Shown piece after piece: positions 12,388-19,933 of a stretch of DNA of 62,748 nt. The position numbers were made by a program, and so were the translations under genes. Origin of the DNA: Minisyncoccia bacterium (GTDB taxonomy: Bacteria; Patescibacteriota; Minisyncoccia; Phycocordibacterales; UBA9973); the NCBI GenBank assembly GCA_049287305.1, contig JBAQFO010000003.1, forward strand, positions 1 to 62,748. The letters are read 5' to 3'. Under the pieces are notes generated by a model. That model was not told the origin of the DNA and searched no databases. It saw nothing but the letters and a program-made list of their open reading frames with translations. Within the stretch, counting starts at the first letter, position 1; the number at the start of each line of letters is the position of its first letter.

Positions 12388-13584
12388 TTATTTACTCAAT
12401 ACGTTCCACACCGCAGGGTCTTCTTCACCATCTATTTTAAATATGGCCACGCCCTTGAGCCCGAGCTCTTGCGCTAGTTTTACTTTATCTTCTATTGCTT
12501 TAGAATCGCTCCATCTTATGAAATTGAAAGTTGTGGTTTGGCCCGTCTTGTTGGCATAGGCTAGAGCCTTTTGAGCTATCATGTCGCCCTCCGAAGTCCC
12601 CGCAGGCACGGTGAGTCCAGGTAGTGCAGCGATAAGAGCATTCCTCTCCGCGGTGCCATTTACGGGCAAGTAAGAAAAGCTAAGCTCCCCGGCTTTGTCC
12701 CGAAGCGGAGTGATGTCATAGGTCGCGGCCACATCCGTGGCATAAACATGATTTAAGGATTGAACCTTTTTATAATCCTTGAACCTGTTGGGTGAAACGG
12801 TCACTATATATTCTTGTCCGTAAGTAGCCACGCCGAGCATAATCTTTTTCTTCGGAATATCTTTCATGGCAAGCTCCGCCACTTTTCGGACCCAGTCTTT
12901 GTCGGCTACGGGAATATATGGAGACCCGGCTTTGGCGTCATTTAATTTTATGTCCGCCCGCCCTTGGTCATAGGCCATGATTTCCACTTCATCGCAATGT
13001 TTACCTATGGCTTTGAAGTCATTCGCGTATTGGATATCTGTCGGCACTACCCTATACAAAGAGTCGGGCGGGGTTCGCGCTTCTATGGCGCAAGAGAGAA
13101 TTTTGTTCTTACCCAATTCTTTTTTCAGTTCTTTCAAGAAAGTAGCAAAATCACTTTTGGTTTCGGCAAGCTTCGCCTCATAGTCTATATTCACGCCATC
13201 AAACTTTTCTTTCTTTACCATGTCCATTATGGCCTTGATATGCTTCTTGCGGAGAGTTTTATCGCTTAGGATGCGCTCAATGTCGGCTCCCTGTGACCAC
13301 ATGACCGTGGGCAATATATCCACATCTTTCTTTCTAGCCAGTTTAAAAAGGTTCTGCCAAGCGGTCTTCGCTGTTTTATCTGTCGCGTTTTTGCTTACTT
13401 TAGCCAAATCGTTCAGTGTCCCGTCTGCTTTTACCGAATATCCGAAAGGATGAAGAGTGTCGAGTGTGTCCAAATGATTCTCCGCATCTTTTGCCCCAGC
13501 GACAATAGTCCAATAAGGAATCCAGCCGGAAATTTCAAGTTCCTTGGAATTGTTTGTCTCAGCCGCCAGCGCCCACCCAAGCAA
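12388..13584 (-). CDS. Glycoside hydrolase family 18 protein (chitinase/YaaH-like)
   Basis: FDGVNIDYE catalytic motif. The ORF opens at a TTG only 8 codons before an ALA|AE-like site and overlaps the 3' end of the DUF262 gene. Confidence 0.75.
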   Translation of the reverse strand: MLGWALAAETNNSKELEISGWIPYWTIVAGAKDAENHLDTLDTLHPFGYSVKADGTLNDLAKVSKNATDKTAKTAWQNLFKLARKKDVDILPTVMWSQGADIERILSDKTLRKKHIKAIMDMVKKEKFDGVNIDYEAKLAETKSDFATFLKELKKELGKNKILSCAIEARTPPDSLYRVVPTDIQYANDFKAIGKHCDEVEIMAYDQGRADIKLNDAKAGSPYIPVADKDWVRKVAELAMKDIPKKKIMLGVATYGQEYIVTVSPNRFKDYKKVQSLNHVYATDVAATYDITPLRDKAGELSFSYLPVNGTAERNALIAALPGLTVPAGTSEGDMIAQKALAYANKTGQTTTFNFIRWSDSKAIEDKVKLAQELGLKGVAIFKIDGEEDPAVWNVLSK

Positions 13585-14263
13585 TTACATTTTGGAAATA
13601 TTTCCATAATTCTTCGGCACTCGCGTCATGTTGATGCTTAGCCATGTAATCTTCTATTTTTCCGTCGTTGATCCACGAAAGCGCTGCTTCTAAGTAATCT
13701 TGACGAATCACGGACCCAGTTAAGTAATCACTTCCTATGTTATAAGCTGGGCAATTAGATTTACTAAAATGCCTTTTTGCATCAGTAAGCCACTCTCCTG
13801 TGTAAATAGCATTCCGGAGCTCTTGATCTGCAAGCTTTAATCCCGCAATATTTATAGTTTTAAACCAGTCCAATTTTTCTTTGTCATCACCCTCACAAAA
13901 ATACACCATTAATTTATAATTAAGAATTTGGTTTTTTTCAGTTTCCTCAAGATTGTGAAAATACTGAAAATTAAGTGAGAAATTACCTGCCACATATTCA
14001 CAAATACTTATAGTTCTCTGTTGCCCATCCATTACTTCAAAAGTGCCATCTTCATTTTTAGCCCAATACATTACATTTAACGGAAAATTTTTTCTAGTAG
14101 TTTCAATAACTGCATCTCTTTGCTTATCTTTGTAAACGAATTCACGCTGATATTTTGGACGAATATTCAATCTTCCCCCATAGCCAACAACCCCTTCTTC
14201 GTTGTTGTTTATATATTTATTTGAAATTTCTTTAATTGTAATTTCTTTTAGTTGTATTTTCAT
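13559..14263 (-). CDS. DUF262 (ParB/GmrSD N-terminal-like) domain protein with no DUF1524/HNH half
   Basis: MDGQQRT motif and IRPKYQREFVY N-terminal motif. 234 aa. Confidence 0.75.
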   Translation of the reverse strand: MKIQLKEITIKEISNKYINNNEEGVVGYGGRLNIRPKYQREFVYKDKQRDAVIETTRKNFPLNVMYWAKNEDGTFEVMDGQQRTISICEYVAGNFSLNFQYFHNLEETEKNQILNYKLMVYFCEGDDKEKLDWFKTINIAGLKLADQELRNAIYTGEWLTDAKRHFSKSNCPAYNIGSDYLTGSVIRQDYLEAALSWINDGKIEDYMAKHQHDASAEELWKYFQNVIAWVGAGG

Positions 14264-14273
14264 TAGTTATTTT

Positions 14274-15257
14274 CTATATTCTCTTATTTTTAATAACAAC
14301 TCTAACATAACAAGGCTTTCCTTTGATTTGCGCTAAATACTTCCCCCTTGTTTCATTAGTTGGTCCAGACAAAATACTATAACGATTAAGTCCGTCTAAA
14401 ATTTCAAATTGATCAGGACTATACTTATCTAAAAATGTAATTGGGACACCAATCGCTTCTTTGTAGTCCATGGGGATATCCTTTGTTTTATCAACATTTA
14501 TAGCATCAAAGTGGTCATATTTAAGATATTCGTTCTCGTGCCCATAATACTTTCTATAAAGAATTAAATCGTCGTGGCGTTCCTTGTAATCTAGATTAGT
14601 AAACCAGCGAACACCGTTAACTCTTACGTATTGGTCACCTTTTTCATCTATTCTTTTACTAGGAGAATGCACAATATAATGTAAAGGTACTCTGAATTCT
14701 CTATCCCCGCTATGTATACTTTGCCCCAACCAAATTTTATTATCTTTTATTAGTTTAAAAATTTCTTTATAGGTAATAGCATTTTGGTTCCCAATAATTA
14801 TAAATTTCTTATTGTATTCAAATAGTTGCGCTACATACTCTCTAAATAAAGAGAAGGGAGGATTGGTAACAACTATGTCTGCCTCTTTTAAGATTTCCAC
14901 ACACTCAGGACTCCTAAAATCACCATTTTGTTTTAGGGGAGTCTTGACTGTATCTAATTTGTTTATCTTCCCATCTTTATTCATATCTTTCGTAATCTCT
15001 AATTTATATGATGGCTTTTCTGTTTCATAATGTGTAGAGATTAACTTTTTTAATCCAAGGTGTTCAAAGTTATCGGCAAAATATTTCCAAAAATGACTTT
15101 CCTCTGGGTCATCGCAATTACAAAATATAACTTTATTTTTCAGGTGGTTTTTGTAGTTCTTTAATTCTTTTTCAATATCAGAGAGTTGTGTGTAAAACTC
15201 GTCATTCTTGGCGGCGTCTGCTTTGCGTAAATTTTTATTTGATGATCTGTTGGCCAT
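14274..15257 (-). CDS. N6-adenine DNA methyltransferase, EcoRI-methylase family
   Basis: DEFYTQLSDIEKEL near the N-terminus and the IVVTNPPFS catalytic motif. The ATG at 15257 overlaps the upstream stop (TAATG). Confidence 0.8.
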   Translation of the reverse strand: MANRSSNKNLRKADAAKNDEFYTQLSDIEKELKNYKNHLKNKVIFCNCDDPEESHFWKYFADNFEHLGLKKLISTHYETEKPSYKLEITKDMNKDGKINKLDTVKTPLKQNGDFRSPECVEILKEADIVVTNPPFSLFREYVAQLFEYNKKFIIIGNQNAITYKEIFKLIKDNKIWLGQSIHSGDREFRVPLHYIVHSPSKRIDEKGDQYVRVNGVRWFTNLDYKERHDDLILYRKYYGHENEYLKYDHFDAINVDKTKDIPMDYKEAIGVPITFLDKYSPDQFEILDGLNRYSILSGPTNETRGKYLAQIKGKPCYVRVVIKNKRI

Positions 15258-15433
15258 TATTTCTTCCAATCCTTAACAACTAAAGTTTTGCCTTTGGAAG
15301 ATACGACGACCTTTTGCCCTTCCCTCCATTTGAACTTGCGGACTAAATCTATCGGCAACGTAACAGCAAGTGAAGCTTTGCCTACTTTTGTTATCTTTCT
15401 TATATTTGTTTGTCCGATTTTGCGGGTAGGCAT
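15257..15433 (-). CDS. AbrB/MazE/SpoVT-family DNA-binding protein, 58 aa (not in the ORF track)
   Basis: My own minus-strand translation is MPTRKIGQTNIRKITKVGKASLAVTLPIDLVRKFKWREGQKVVVSSKGKTLVVKDWKK. It shows the classic swapped-hairpin motif (VGKASLAVTLP...GQKVVV). Confidence 0.7.
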   Translation of the reverse strand: MPTRKIGQTNIRKITKVGKASLAVTLPIDLVRKFKWREGQKVVVSSKGKTLVVKDWKK

Positions 15434-15439
15434 GTAAGT

Positions 15440-15459
15440 AATGTATTACGTACATTCTA
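15440..15459 (-). promoter_or_regulatory. Inverted repeat overlapping the -10 box of the AbrB-methylase operon (candidate operator)
   Basis: AATGTA (15440-15445), 5 nt, then TACATT (15451-15456). The minus-strand -10 box TAGAAT lies at 15459-15454. Confidence 0.4.
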
Positions 15460-15508
15460 TCCCTAAAAGAACCAAAAAACAAACCCTTTTTATACAACAC
15501 ATCCAACT

Positions 15509-15536
15509 TTGATAGGAGCAGAAATTAGTGTACAAT
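15509..15536 (+). promoter_or_regulatory. Promoter of the second methyltransferase
   Basis: TTGATA (15509-15514), a 16-nt spacer, then TACAAT (15531-15536), 25 nt before the ATG at 15562. Confidence 0.55.
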
Positions 15537-15561
15537 ATGGGCAGGAAGTCAAAAATCTCAG

Positions 15562-16707
15562 ATGAAAAAGCAAACCACCAAAAGCAAACAAGAAATTTTA
15601 GGGCAATATTTCACGAAAACTGAAGTGGTAGACAAGCTGCTTAACATTCTTTTTACCTATAAAAAATATAGTAAGAAATCTTCGCTTCTGGAACCTTCTT
15701 TCGGAACAGGTAATTTTATTAAAAACCTCAAAAAAAGAGGCTTCCAGAACATAGAGGGATATGAAATTGACCCAGAGCTAACGAAGGACCCGGTGGACTT
15801 TTTCACTGTGCCGACCAAGCACAAGTTTGATTTAATAGTTGGCAATCCCCCTTTCACCAAATATAACCTTGAGGAAAGCTACTATCACGCTTCCCAATAC
15901 CTCTTATCCGAAGTGAGCCCCTTGGACTATCTGAGTTCAAAAGATATAAAAAGCGACAAGCAAAAAATCGAGAACGCTTTCCTATTAAAATCCCTGAAGC
16001 ATCTGAAAAATGACGAATCCAGCATTGCGTTCATTCTCCCCGTTTCTTTTTTCATCAAAAACAAAAACAAAGACCTGAAAGAAAAGCTACTAACCAAATT
16101 TTCAACTATTATCATTTACCAAAACGACCAAGTCTGGTTCGATAGAAACATTCCTTGCTGTTTTGCTATTTTTTCCAACATTAAAAGCTTTAAAAATAAA
16201 ATTGTCGTCCTTTACGAAAACGGAAACAAGGGCGAAGACATTTTTGATATTTCCAACATTCACGAAGAGCTCATCCCCCAGGTAATCTTTAACAAAAATC
16301 ACGGACTTATCAATAACGAAAGAGGAGTCCCTTTACGGGAATATCTAGCGGAAAAGAATATTAAGGCCAAGAAATCATTTAGCCACAACAGCGTTTCGGC
16401 TAAAAATATCCTAGCCATGAGCAAAATCCCAAAGGAATCCAATATTTCCGATTACAAAATGGCCGTAGTGAGGGTGGGTAACTCAAGCGTCGGAAAATGC
16501 GGACTGGTAAACATAAAAGAAGACGTGTTGAACGACATGTTTTACGTTTTTGATTTTAAAGCAGAATATAATCAGAATAAAAGGCTGAAAGAAGAAATCT
16601 GCAAGAGCATAAACAAGAACATAGATTATTTCAAAAATATCACTTGCCGAGTAGGCAGTAAATCCATAAAGAAAGAAAACGTATACGACTTCAGGGTGGA
16701 AATCTAG
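15562..16707 (+). CDS. N6-adenine DNA methyltransferase, gamma class (TaqI/Eco57I-like)
   Basis: Motif I LEPSFGTGNF precedes motif IV VGNPPFTKY. The C-terminal ~180 aa would be the target-recognition domain. Confidence 0.8.
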   Translation: MKKQTTKSKQEILGQYFTKTEVVDKLLNILFTYKKYSKKSSLLEPSFGTGNFIKNLKKRGFQNIEGYEIDPELTKDPVDFFTVPTKHKFDLIVGNPPFTKYNLEESYYHASQYLLSEVSPLDYLSSKDIKSDKQKIENAFLLKSLKHLKNDESSIAFILPVSFFIKNKNKDLKEKLLTKFSTIIIYQNDQVWFDRNIPCCFAIFSNIKSFKNKIVVLYENGNKGEDIFDISNIHEELIPQVIFNKNHGLINNERGVPLREYLAEKNIKAKKSFSHNSVSAKNILAMSKIPKESNISDYKMAVVRVGNSSVGKCGLVNIKEDVLNDMFYVFDFKAEYNQNKRLKEEICKSINKNIDYFKNITCRVGSKSIKKENVYDFRVEI

Positions 16708-16717
16708 CTTTTTATTG

Positions 16718-17389
16718 CTAGCTTAGTAATAAAATCAAATCATCCCTGTGGTCTACCGACGAGCATGCGAGGGCTTTGGCAATTTCTATGATTGTGTGAC
16801 TTGAAGGTGCCCAATGACATTTTGCTCCCGAACCCAAAGGGGTATTGGTTTGAATATTATTGGCTACGTTTCTCAATGCTATGTTGGGGTTATTAACGCC
16901 AATCAGCACAAACATGTGCGCTGCCAAAGTAAAATCCCCAATTTTAAATGTAATTTTTACCTGGAGATTTGGATCTATGTTCTTTTCGAAAGAGTAGAAA
17001 ATTTCTTCATATTTGAAAACGGCGAAATCGTCTACTCTTTGTTCCAGCTCCTCTTTTTGCGCTTTCCTGCTGTAAAATTCGGAGTCTTTGAGCGAAGTTT
17101 TTATTTCGCTTAATTCTTTTTTGAGCTCAACTATTTCTTCCGGGGTAAGTTTTTGAGTTATCAGCTGAGACAGCTCGGCGTTCGTAATCATCCACTCTAT
17201 ATAGTGAGTGCTGAAATCAATGTTTTGAGAAGAAGGTTTAGAAATATGATTCCCGTGATTATCACAGATTCTGACACTACTGCGAGCAGAGGTTAGCTTC
17301 AGGTCCACTTCCCCGTTTGATATGGAAACCGTGGGAAATTTATTTAGTAAAAGTTCTTGAACCATGTTTAATATTTTGATTTGACTCAT
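16718..17389 (-). CDS. Hypothetical protein, a positional candidate for the cognate restriction endonuclease
   Basis: 223 aa, convergent with and 10 nt from the methyltransferase stop. A central coiled-coil-like segment is present. No nuclease motif was recognised. Confidence 0.5.
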   Translation of the reverse strand: MSQIKILNMVQELLLNKFPTVSISNGEVDLKLTSARSSVRICDNHGNHISKPSSQNIDFSTHYIEWMITNAELSQLITQKLTPEEIVELKKELSEIKTSLKDSEFYSRKAQKEELEQRVDDFAVFKYEEIFYSFEKNIDPNLQVKITFKIGDFTLAAHMFVLIGVNNPNIALRNVANNIQTNTPLGSGAKCHWAPSSHTIIEIAKALACSSVDHRDDLILLLS

Positions 17390-17464
17390 AATTTTACCAC
17401 CTTACTTCACCTGAACCCCAAACTCAATCACCCCTCCTTCACTCTCTTCTGCTTCACCACCCAG

Positions 17465-17484
17465 CCACTTTAGTTTAGTAAAGT
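17465..17484. repeat. Hairpin palindrome family, degenerate copy C
   Basis: CCACTTTA-GTTTAG-TAAAGT. The inner 6-bp arms pair. Confidence 0.5.
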
Positions 17485-17499
17485 AATTATTTAAAAAAA

Positions 17500-19421: not shown

Positions 19422-19453
19422 TTACTCCACTTTACTTAACTAAAGTGGAGTAA
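19422..19453. repeat. Hairpin palindrome family, copy D (perfect)
   Basis: TTACTCCACTTTA-CTTAAC-TAAAGTGGAGTAA, with 13-bp perfect arms. Confidence 0.85.
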
Positions 19454-19903: not shown

Positions 19904-19933
19904 CTTTCCACTTTATTTAACTAAAGTGGAAAG
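19904..19933. repeat. Hairpin palindrome family, copy E (perfect)
   Basis: CTTTCCACTTTA-TTTAAC-TAAAGTGGAAAG, with 12-bp perfect arms. Confidence 0.85.

Follow-up and report, generated by a model that had tools for sequence, protein, structure and literature searches.

PabI-type enzymes are a rare kind of restriction enzyme, in which a base is removed instead of the backbone being cut. The characterised members of the family all cut GTAC, the roles of R32, E63, H211 and D214 have been described for PabI, and its Y68F mutant is defective in base excision (PMC10273834, PMC7806768). A second system relevant here pairs an EcoRI-family methylase with a DUF262-HNH nuclease, termed "adenine-specific methyltransferase EcoRI family protein" and "DUF262 domain-containing protein" by PGAP. 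This pair is also present on plasmids of cultured bacteria, and we found no link between the family and a named REBASE prototype or recognition sequence. Like the Type IV enzymes GmrSD, BrxU and SspE, the full-length nucleases of these pairs have an N-terminal DUF262 domain (ParB-like, DGQQR) followed by a His-Me finger nuclease. They differ in having the PF01844 HNH domain instead of DUF1524, in being much shorter (360 aa) and in being almost always paired with a methylase. This pairing implies that unmodified DNA is attacked and that methylation blocks the attack, which is the opposite of Type IV logic.

We analysed a stretch of 62,748 nucleotides (the window) from a probable Patescibacteria (CPR) genome. 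A preliminary description had placed in it an AT-rich restriction-modification (R-M) island in which two methyltransferase modules directly adjoin each other, and the results support such an island, horizontally acquired. All five ORFs are present at the coordinates it gave, with the TAATG overlap, the 10-nt gap and the DGQQRT and NPPF motifs as described (Table 1). Gaps of 10 nt are found at 14264-14273 and at 16708-16717. In terms of composition, the reported low GC is borne out, with 35.6% at positions 13559-17389 vs 42.7% for the whole window. Only 0.5% of same-length sliding windows are as GC-poor, every one of them overlapping the island, and the flanking genes have 46-47%. The 22-40% per line, counted by hand, was approximate in its range, since 60-nt lines go from 15% to 52%. 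The window has 58 other large ORFs, and none of them was identified as an R-M gene. Two independent Type II R-M modules are probable, and it is quite likely that the island consists of a known R-M module in decay beside a variant of the PabI family.

Table 1. Features of the island and its flank, in window coordinates.
Feature	Position	Strand	Details
GH18 glycosyl hydrolase, flanking host gene	12388..13584	-	Pfam Glyco_hydro_18 E 5e-27
DUF262 protein	13559-14263	-	234 aa, motif VMDGQQRTIS
Proposed deletion/recombination junction	13565..13584	.	nuclease codon ~231 joined to GH18 signal-peptide end
EcoRI-family methylase	14274-15257	-	327 aa from ATG, NPPF at residue 132
AbrB/MazE-like protein	15257-15433	-	58 aa
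Divergent intergenic region	15434..15561	.	promoter-like site and two GTAC sites
Gamma-class methylase	15562-16707	+	381 aa, NPPF at residue 95
223-aa ORF, module 2 restriction component	16718-17389	-	divergent PabI-family (half-pipe), predicted restriction DNA glycosylase

In module 1, the EcoRI-family N6-adenine methylase (331 aa if counted from an upstream TTG) is full length. It matches Pfam EcoRI_methylase over model positions 1-345 of 345 (E 2e-129) and PADLOC MTase_II PDLC03297 (E 4e-125), and is up to 84% identical to relatives. A different picture is seen with the DUF262 ORF. Pfam assigns it GmrSD_N/DUF262 (E 2e-21), and the PADLOC model REase_II PDLC03418 (E 1.8e-86) is covered at positions 1-242 of 372 only. 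More than 100 relatives with 75-85% identity are 360 aa long and carry PF03235 and PF01844. Both alignment and tblastn place the end of the nuclease homology, up to 85% identical over the first 230 residues, at residue ~230-232 (position 13568-13574). The DUF262 domain (ParB-like, DGQQRT) and part of a helical linker are retained, and the last ~128 aa, HNH domain included, are missing. There is no HNH remnant in any frame of the window, and reading through the ORF with UGA as glycine yields no HNH; TGA is the stop codon in 8 of 58 long ORFs. Judging from these alignments, the 234-aa ORF is the 5' two-thirds of a gene for a 360-aa DUF262+HNH Type II nuclease. Its product would be unable to cut DNA, leaving the methylase effectively an orphan.

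The relatives show what the complete module looks like. Among 82 other loci, 79 contain a full-length nuclease and two more are cut by a contig end, with the EcoRI-family methylase upstream of the DUF262-HNH gene in 81. As in the relatives, the methylase of the window copy comes before the nuclease, on the same strand and closely spaced. We propose that module 1 is what remains of a mobile pair with a very wide distribution, in which the methylase would be followed by a nuclease with a ParB-like, NTP-binding DUF262 domain and a C-terminal HNH domain. Loss of the nuclease with retention of the methylase as an orphan would be the usual route of R-M decay, and HpyAXII is a documented case (PMC2588503).

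The preliminary description had instead read the 234-aa protein as a stand-alone DUF262 which, with the methylase and the AbrB-like protein, might form a separate kind of defence module linked to methylation. With the TAATG overlap and the 10-nt gap, the three genes lie close together and are apparently transcribed as one unit, the DUF262 ORF is unbroken and little degraded, and an 84%-identical AbrB-like gene precedes another methylase cluster (locus L091). Even so, this reading is largely refuted, and we regard it as highly improbable. The supposed stand-alone protein is a 3'-truncated copy of the 360-aa nuclease, the triad recurs in none of the 82 other loci, and PADLOC classes the DUF262 protein and the methylase as a Type II REase and MTase. 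Truncation, lack of co-occurrence and membership of a known system were the three outcomes the preliminary description had named as telling against its proposal. Database entries that look like "242-aa DUF262-only" proteins come from genes that UGA=Gly coding splits in two, and the HNH ORF follows directly. With its HNH domain deleted, module 1 is thus not a new defence system.

The neighbouring gene points in the same direction, as the junction that truncates the nuclease also decapitates the GH18 gene, which argues for accident and not design. The GH18 ORF begins at 13584, immediately past an in-frame TAA. Alignment offsets and the N-terminal sequences of its relatives show that these have ~10-25 extra residues, a signal peptide, without counterpart in the window copy. 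The gene is thus missing its start codon and the greater part of its signal peptide, both lost at this junction. We read this as a single deletion that took both the last ~128 nuclease codons (HNH included) and the start and signal peptide of the GH18 gene.

A chimeric assembly, with an intact DUF262-HNH gene in the real genome, would give a similar picture. The source is a metagenome-assembled genome, and GC changes abruptly at the junction (45.9% in the GH18 gene vs 34.8% in the adjoining DUF262 gene), but the border of an acquired island would be expected to show such a change. Furthermore, the junction is identical in an NCBI MAG contig of 64.5 kb and in a Logan contig that was assembled independently, the two being 100% identical over 7 kb, albeit possibly from the same reads. 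Both partners are truncated at one exact point, with a short ORF overlap that is typical of a real deletion. Mis-assembly is unlikely at this junction, and a chimera hiding an intact gene is barely credible.

As for the fate of the fragment, 4 of 128 highly conserved columns are changed, whereas the relatives have a median of 1 change and at most 6. These weak signs of relaxed constraint suggest either that the truncation is recent or that the fragment keeps some role. It could be useful without its nuclease domain, for example by binding NTP or DNA in the manner of ParB-like proteins, or by acting as a dominant-negative decoy when copies of the same nuclease come in. The ORF is intact over 230 residues and retains DGQQR and most of the invariant positions, with only those four changes, and it is still placed for co-translation behind the methylase. 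Against this, the fragment is found in one genome only, and with four changes it ranks in the family's top ~6%, in line with early decay. The cut apparently falls inside the linker helix and not at a domain boundary, although the model here is poor (pLDDT 60.8). We consider a retained function improbable.

The last member of the triad is the 58-aa protein, which matches Pfam PF04014 MazE_antitoxin (AbrB/SpoVT fold, E 1.7e-6) and whose stop overlaps the methylase start (AAA-TAATG-GCC). It is probably a small DNA-binding regulator, translationally coupled to the module 1 methylase. A similar arrangement, with a small DNA-binding protein heading a translationally coupled operon, is known from R-M systems with C-proteins and from MazE/AbrB antitoxins. 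Unlike C-proteins it does not have a helix-turn-helix, and unlike the antitoxin genes its gene is not followed by a toxin gene. Nor is it conserved with the module 1 family: it is missing from 81 of the 82 loci, and in the remaining one it lies downstream of the nuclease gene. No conserved regulator was found upstream of the methylase in intact relatives. The 22 AbrB-like homologues found head unrelated operons (a MTase cluster, DUF4406/MazG/helicase, NUDIX). This gene would then be a locus-specific leader or regulator, outside the R-M system.

Module 2 is intact. Its methylase is a full-length TaqI-like gamma-class N6-adenine MTase (Pfam Eco57I E 3e-9, N6_Mtase E 5.5e-9; PADLOC MTase_II E 1.9e-22), with M.TaqI as the nearest solved structure. 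Of 55 loci of the 223-aa family, 43 have a homologue of this methylase as a convergent direct neighbour and 6 more have one elsewhere in the locus, giving linkage in 49/55. M.HpyAXII is likewise a TaqI-like gamma methylase, and the adjoining of such a gene is a point of likeness with that system, as is the low-GC, island-like placement described for PabI. The convergent gene order is a difference from the PabI family. In contrast to module 1, the loci of the 223-aa relatives often contain a classical HTH_3 C-protein.

The 223-aa protein is recognised by no Pfam or PADLOC model, RE_R_Pab1 included, and the earlier remark that it has no recognisable nuclease motif was correct. Structure prediction, suggested along with that remark, gave a confident half-pipe model (AlphaFold2, pLDDT 92.5). 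With this model, Foldseek retrieves R.PabI and R.CcoLI only (E 8e-12 to 3e-4, probability 1.0, TM ~0.6), and the next match is at E 0.16. The homology extends over the full length at the profile level, both for the family profile against the PabI sequence (E 3.9e-5) and with hhalign (97.3%, E 2.3e-11), at ~20% identity. [quoted passage not shown] R32, E63, H211 and D214 of PabI correspond to R40, E65, H214 and D217, which are invariant in 42 sequences; the wedge loop is conserved, and every invariant residue of the family is present in the window protein. From predicted fold and profile alignment, we assign it to the half-pipe (PabI) superfamily as a divergent member, predicted to be a restriction DNA glycosylase. 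Nuclease motifs would be missing because this glycosylase family does not have the classical ones. The hosts are CPR bacteria and DPANN archaea, and not Campylobacterales or hyperthermophilic archaea as in the known family.

In the proposed mechanism, a homodimer would bend DNA at a short palindrome, most likely GTAC, flip the adenine out and hydrolyse its N-glycosidic bond, except where the methylase has converted it to m6A. Host AP endonucleases would then break the abasic sites left behind, or these would break spontaneously.

Two differences concern the chemistry. The catalytic Tyr68 of PabI is replaced by an invariant Asn (Asn70 in the window protein), and a 7-residue deletion removes the loop with Lys73, the equivalent of the AP-lyase Lys71 of CcoLI. 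These two changes lead us to expect a monofunctional glycosylase that has hardly any AP-lyase activity or none. In glycosylases of the MUG/TDG type, an Asn is the catalytic residue and positions the water. As Tyr68 is not conserved and Y68F is defective in PabI, the chemistry may differ. The protein might even be a half-pipe without glycosylase activity, one that binds DNA or that acts as a nuclease by other chemistry, a reading that the invariant Asn, the absent loop and the Y68F defect would all fit. We find this unlikely, given that R32, E63 and the triad's His and Asp do not vary in the family, and that so strict a partnership with an adenine methylase implies an activity that is toxic and sensitive to methylation.

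Lastly, in terms of the recognition site, GTAC is the most depleted of the 256 tetranucleotides in the window, with 18 observed vs 104 expected (O/E 0.17). Strong avoidance of GTAC in host DNA is a further likeness to the PabI family. In the host contigs of the 223-aa family the O/E is 0.64, vs 0.80 in control genomes, and GTAC ranks 1st to 4th most depleted in 10 of 26 long host contigs. The depletion is uneven among the other hosts, and two long contigs (L098 and L156) have none. The segment that aligns with the beta8-beta9 base-recognition loop of PabI has a different sequence, so the site may not be GTAC. The enzyme would then recognise another sequence, and GTAC depletion would be a trace left by a different system encoded elsewhere in the genome; the window is likewise depleted of GATC, TCGA and GGCC, for which no corresponding gene was seen. 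We hold this as a possibility, though a doubtful one, considering the rank of GTAC in the window and in host contigs, the conserved wedge loop and R32, and the shared GTAC specificity of all characterised members.

GTAC also occurs between the two modules. A promoter-like TTGATA-16-TACAAT (15509-15536, plus strand, 10/12 matches) is a candidate for the module 2 methylase by consensus match only, and its -10 box overlaps the GTAC at 15530. An inverted repeat AATGTA-N5-TACATT (15441-15457), likewise a consensus match only, holds the GTAC at 15450.

The preliminary description of the window placed five ORFs in an AT-rich restriction-modification (R-M) island, and all five were found at the coordinates that it reported. 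The TAATG stop/start overlap, the 10-nt gap (the island has two such gaps), the DGQQRT motif and both NPPF motifs were each verified in the sequence, and its domain calls agree with Pfam. The island has 35.6% GC against 42.7% for the window and is the lowest segment of its length, with flanking genes at 46-47%. Its reading as an R-M island stands. The unexpected content is the 223-aa ORF, which matches no Pfam model and is a candidate divergent restriction glycosylase.

Coordinates of the island genes, of neighbouring features and of two features in related loci
Feature	Position	Strand	Description
GH18 glycosyl hydrolase gene	12388-13584	-	
DUF262 protein	13559-14263	-	234 aa; Pfam GmrSD_N, E 2e-21; motif VMDGQQRT
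EcoRI-family methylase	14274-15257	-	327 aa from ATG; NPPF; Pfam and PADLOC MTase_II
AbrB/MazE-like protein	15257-15433	-	58 aa; AbrB fold by Pfam
Gamma-class methylase	15562-16707	+	381 aa; NPPF; TaqI-like
223-aa ORF	16718-17389	-	no Pfam match
GTAC sites in or beside the island	14687, 15450, 15530, 17609		
24-nt palindrome copies	17464-17487, 19426-19449, 19907-19930		all intergenic
Tandem methylase genes, locus L052	3051-4022		EcoRI-family
AbrB-like copy, loci L091/L092	3501-3677		84% identical

We modelled the 223-aa protein with AlphaFold2 from 42 sequences (pLDDT 92.5, pTM 0.85). Against the PDB, Foldseek retrieved only R.PabI (E 8e-12 to 1e-7) and R.CcoLI (2e-8 and 3e-4), with a probability of 1.0 and a TM of about 0.6; the next match had an E of 0.16. 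As modelled, the protein has the half-pipe fold of these restriction DNA glycosylases. In terms of sequence, the family profile matched PabI over its full length with hmmsearch (E 3.9e-5), and hhalign gave a probability of 97.3% (E 2.3e-11, 180 columns).

This relationship surfaced only through the family profile and the predicted structure. Searches of Pfam, NCBIfam, PADLOC and, with the single sequence, the PDB were all empty for the 223-aa protein, which was the sole member put to PADLOC and NCBIfam. As for the Pfam model RE_R_Pab1 (PF09522), it matches none of the 42 family members at E <= 10; PabI itself, as positive control, matches it at E 1.7e-10.

The residues whose roles are known in PabI (PMC10273834, PMC7806768, PMC7229829) were compared with their counterparts in the family. 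The catalytic triad is two-thirds conserved, with His and Asp kept and Tyr not, and we therefore file the protein as a PabI variant. It is not a plain member of the PabI family, since one of the three catalytic residues differs and the family models are blind to it. Enzymes of the PabI family excise adenine independently of Mg2+, with or without AP-lyase activity. With the loss of the lysine loop (Lys73 in PabI, Lys71 in CcoLI), AP-lyase activity of the 223-aa protein is predicted to be weak or absent.

Functional residues of PabI and their counterparts in the 223-aa family
PabI	Role	223-aa family
R32	essential for cleavage; sequence-specific DNA binding	R40, invariant
E63	essential for cleavage	E65, invariant
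H211	catalytic triad	H214, nearly invariant (at least 90% of 42 sequences)
D214	catalytic triad	D217, nearly invariant (at least 90% of 42 sequences)
Wedge loop TRPTSKIR (P27/T28)	into minor groove	kept as T-S-P/A-R-S-K/S-V-R; A for P in the window
Y68	catalytic triad (Y52-H222-D225 in CcoLI)	N70, invariant Asn
Seven residues after Y68, incl. K73	lysine loop; K73 = AP-lyase K71 of CcoLI	deleted
K154	K154A is a weak cutter	Gly
~K152-Q161	taken to include the base-reading beta8-beta9 loop	different sequence

To our knowledge, only one family of restriction enzymes removes a base rather than cutting the backbone. A 2023 review places this PabI family in Helicobacter/Campylobacter and a few hyperthermophilic archaea (PMC10273834), and the literature on it mentions Campylobacterales, a few thermophilic archaea and bacteria, and sporadic Brachyspira, Mycoplasma and Mucispirillum. 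Our literature search listed no paper on PabI in CPR or DPANN organisms; the one listed paper in which “PabI” occurs concerns metallo-beta-lactamase-like genes. REBASE may already list putative homologues. The family of the 223-aa protein contains about 84 clustered proteins, all of 181-221 aa except one partial of 124 aa. Where the source is named, these are hypothetical proteins of CPR bacteria or DPANN archaea. GenBank phage records and IMG/VR gave no phage carrying the family.

Like M.HpyAXII, the 381-aa methylase of the window belongs to the TaqI-like gamma class of N6-adenine enzymes, and its gene is convergent with the 223-aa gene, 10 nt apart. We retrieved 80 further metagenomic loci of the family. 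A homologue of this methylase is convergent and adjacent in 43 of the 55 loci with enough flank, and in 6 more it is found at another place in the locus. Of the other six, four have an N4/N6 methylase adjacent instead. The family is thus tightly linked to methylases, as expected of a restriction component.

Many relatives have a second, nested R-M system (L085-L087, L096-L098, L100, L115, L118-L122). In these loci an HTH_3 C-protein is followed by a protein of ~200 aa (PADLOC REase_II PDLC03460, E 2e-12) whose gene overlaps the PabI-like start codon, and the gamma methylase is followed by an N4/N6 methylase. The ~200-aa neighbour was considered as a heterodimer partner. It shows no similarity to the 223-aa relatives (hhalign probability 0.2%) and matches a different Type II REase model, so these loci are read as two nested R-M systems and not as a heterodimer.

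GTAC, which PabI-type enzymes recognise unless it is methylated to GTm6AC, is the most depleted of the 256 tetranucleotides in the window, with 18 observed against 104 expected (O/E 0.17). In the pooled contigs that host the 223-aa family its O/E is 0.64, compared with 0.80 in 82 control loci, and it ranks first to fourth in depletion in 10 of the 26 long host contigs. The window's other 58 large ORFs contain no further detectable R-M gene. As for GTAC being the site of the 223-aa protein, the depletion is indirect evidence, and the recognition-loop region differs from that of PabI; we rate the chance that GTAC is the palindrome bound as slightly better than even.

GATC (O/E 0.28), TCGA (0.37) and GGCC (0.55) are also strongly depleted in the window, and a matching R-M gene is not visible outside the island. 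This suggests that the genome holds further R-M systems outside the window, or that there was an exposure in the past. Four of the 18 GTAC sites of the window lie in or beside the 3.8-kb island, and two of these four are inside the 128-nt divergent promoter region. Such a placement agrees with a recent acquisition of the DNA, or with a regulatory role of the sites. Upstream of the 381-aa methylase there is a promoter-like site with a -10 box that overlaps a GTAC, and we speculate that this overlap could give methylation-dependent autoregulation.

Module 2 (the gamma-class methylase and the 223-aa protein) is intact and, judged by its sequences, would work like PabI systems. The 223-aa protein would dimerise and bend DNA at a short palindrome. 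An adenine would then be flipped out and its glycosidic bond hydrolysed unless N6-methylated, with Asn70 taking on the water-positioning role of Tyr68. In the absence of the lysine loop, strand breaks would come from cellular AP endonucleases or spontaneous beta-elimination. Mutations in xth and nfo, which encode the two AP endonucleases, likewise suppressed restriction by R.PabI in E. coli at 37 °C. We see an even chance that the clade consists of unrecognised base-excision restriction enzymes, with more than 100 metagenomic members in CPR and DPANN, an Asn-His-Asp site and no AP-lyase lysine loop.

If this is true, restriction glycosylases reach far beyond the niche of Campylobacterales and hyperthermophiles described so far. 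The clade would be pure glycosylases, with the victim's AP endonucleases breaking the DNA, and its sites may extend beyond GTAC. Finding a divergent branch of the PabI family among ultra-small CPR bacteria and DPANN archaea widens its known distribution and provides a natural active-site variant (Asn for Tyr, no lysine loop) in which to study the coupling of glycosylase and AP-lyase. A family so far annotated only as “hypothetical protein” gets a name. Furthermore, because such enzymes would be invisible to Pfam, PADLOC and similar tools, R-M counts in CPR and DPANN lineages are probably underestimates.

In the case of module 1 (the DUF262 protein, the EcoRI-family methylase and the AbrB/MazE-like protein), the combination had been proposed as a distinct, methylation-linked defence module. 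The analysis does not support this, on three grounds. PADLOC assigns the DUF262 protein and the methylase to known Type II R-M components (REase_II and MTase_II models). The three genes do not co-occur: in the neighbourhood check, an AbrB-like gene is present in 1 of 82 loci, and there it is downstream of the nuclease. Lastly, the DUF262 protein, described as stand-alone, is a truncated copy of a DUF262-HNH nuclease of ~360 aa.

The truncation is seen both in the model match and in the alignment. The DUF262 protein matches the PADLOC Type II REase model PDLC03418 (E 1.8e-86) at positions 1-242 of 372 only. In the homologue search, the best 120 of thousands of relatives are 75-85% identical, and nearly all have 360 aa with PF03235 and PF01844. 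The window protein tracks its relatives to residue ~231 and then ends, with the last ~128 residues and their HNH motif absent. A tblastn search with four full-length relatives found no HNH remnant in any frame of the window. Given the 234-aa length, the end of homology at ~231 and the missing remnant, we consider the window copy a decayed, non-functional member. The truncated ORF has 4 deviations at conserved positions against a median of 1 in relatives, a weak signal of relaxed selection, and the truncation is probably recent.

Without an HNH domain, the 234-aa protein would, from what its sequence holds, have no known way to cut DNA. The intact EcoRI-family methylase is left as an orphan, and methylation would be the sole function of module 1 still operating. 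Loss of the nuclease with the methylase kept is the same pattern as in HpyAXII, where 92% of strains keep methylase activity but just 19% have a working nuclease (PMC2588503). Near 45.4 kb, a possible second DUF262 gene was rejected as spurious, the tblastn match being weak (E 0.02) and on the opposite strand to the sole ORF there. An AlphaFold2 model of the full-length nuclease, from a 40-sequence alignment, reached a pLDDT of only 60.8, the aligned sequences being too alike (~80% identity), and it was left out of the fold search.

The nuclease breakpoint, at ~13568-13574, coincides with the start of the flanking GH18 ORF (13584, right after an in-frame TAA). All GH18 relatives have ~10-25 extra N-terminal residues, which form a signal peptide, and the window ORF keeps only the tail '..WALAAE'. 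Since the breakpoint is shared by both genes, a single event deleted the nuclease gene's 3' end together with the 5' end of GH18. An NCBI MAG contig and a Logan contig show an identical junction, which is unlikely to be an artefact. As for GH18 itself, the nuclease-truncating deletion removed its start codon and signal peptide, and the enzyme has probably lost its secretion or function.

Genetic code 25 was rejected as the cause of the truncation, as reading through UGA as Gly yields no HNH and TGA is a stop codon in the window. The code does bear on similar database entries. A 242-aa “DUF262-only” protein (P0113, locus L176) comes from a gene split by an in-frame UGA, with the HNH ORF directly after it. 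Neighbouring genes in L176 are split too, and this genome seems to use code 25, in which UGA means Gly, as Gracilibacteria do. Three further proteins of 242 aa with the same end point (P0030, P0093, P0100) are assumed to have the same cause. Read as products of code-25 split genes, these 242-aa proteins do not speak for a short form that occurs naturally.

The census of the nuclease-methylase pair covers 82 independent loci from Patescibacteria, DPANN archaea, Bacteroidota, Firmicutes, Proteobacteria, Cyanobacteria and others. Of these, 79 have the nuclease at full length and 2 have it cut by the contig end; in the remaining one (L043) the match breaks off at residue 282, before the contig ends. 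The methylase is upstream on the same strand in 81, and immediately adjacent in ~75. Module 2 genes accompany the pair in none of the 82 loci. Plasmids of cultured bacteria carry the pair too, annotated with generic PGAP names. In the window, the methylase is upstream of the nuclease gene, 10 nt away, and matches PADLOC MTase_II PDLC03297 (E 4e-125, protein 5-330 against model 1-329/332) and the whole of its Pfam model (1-345/345).

No conserved regulator was found 5' of the methylase among intact relatives. About half have no ORF there, two have an XRE-like HTH (by sequence only) and one has HTH_17. The conserved unit is the methylase plus the full-length nuclease. In terms of recognition site, the 82 host loci (668 kb) avoid no specific word and show just the usual GGCC and GATC depletion. 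The literature and plasmid search returned generic names only, with no REBASE prototype or paper naming the DUF262-HNH family.

Like GmrSD, the window's DUF262 protein has an N-terminal PF03235 and the DGQQR motif. Unlike GmrSD, it lacks DUF1524; it has no C-terminal domain at all, and its full-length relatives have the PF01844 HNH. GmrSD is stand-alone and modification-dependent, with no cognate methyltransferase, whereas the module-1 family has a methylase upstream in all but one locus. Module 1 is a known kind of system, a decayed Type II R-M system, and not GmrSD.

Some variation was found among the relatives. Locus L052 has two tandem EcoRI-family methylase genes 5' of the DUF262-HNH nuclease. 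Across bacterial and archaeal phyla (L003-L084), the nuclease is 60-85% identical and its methylase partner 46-84%. The nuclease is thus the better conserved of the two, the reverse of the usual pattern, which suggests rapid horizontal spread or strong constraint.

The AbrB-like protein has 22 detectable homologues, which head unrelated operons (a methylase cluster, DUF4406/MazG/helicase, NUDIX). We read the gene as not part of the module-1 R-M system, and as a portable or locus-specific small DNA-binding protein. If it were a MazE/AbrB antitoxin, a cognate toxin (MazF, PIN, Doc) should sit downstream, but the EcoRI-family methylase does. The homologues, unlike toxin-antitoxin pairs, are followed by a methylase, DUF4406 or NUDIX gene. 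In C-protein-controlled R-M systems an HTH C-protein is conserved with the pair, whereas the module-1 leader has the AbrB fold instead. The copy in L091/L092 heads an unrelated cluster that encodes an N4/N6 methylase, an unknown protein of 288 aa, a D12-class methylase and a T5orf172 protein, and a PF1765-like gene lies a few kb upstream, as it does in the window. These neighbours hint at a variable region, open to R-M genes, that the AbrB-like gene marks in related genomes.

Module 1 serves as a caution. What looked like a new defence architecture, a “domain-only” protein beside a methylase, was left behind by a deletion, and database entries that look alike arise artificially from UGA=Gly coding. 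Homologue length must be checked in domain-architecture screens of CPR genomes.

Outside the island, one large ORF matches the PADLOC model “mad3” (E 1e-33) and another “mad8” (1.6e-12). Neither is among the ten largest, and these may be generic domain matches. Lastly, a perfect or near-perfect palindrome of 24 nt (TCCACTTTAyTTAACTAAAGTGGA) occurs in two copies, with a third, related one just upstream of the 223-aa gene. It may be a host operator or a terminator-like element.
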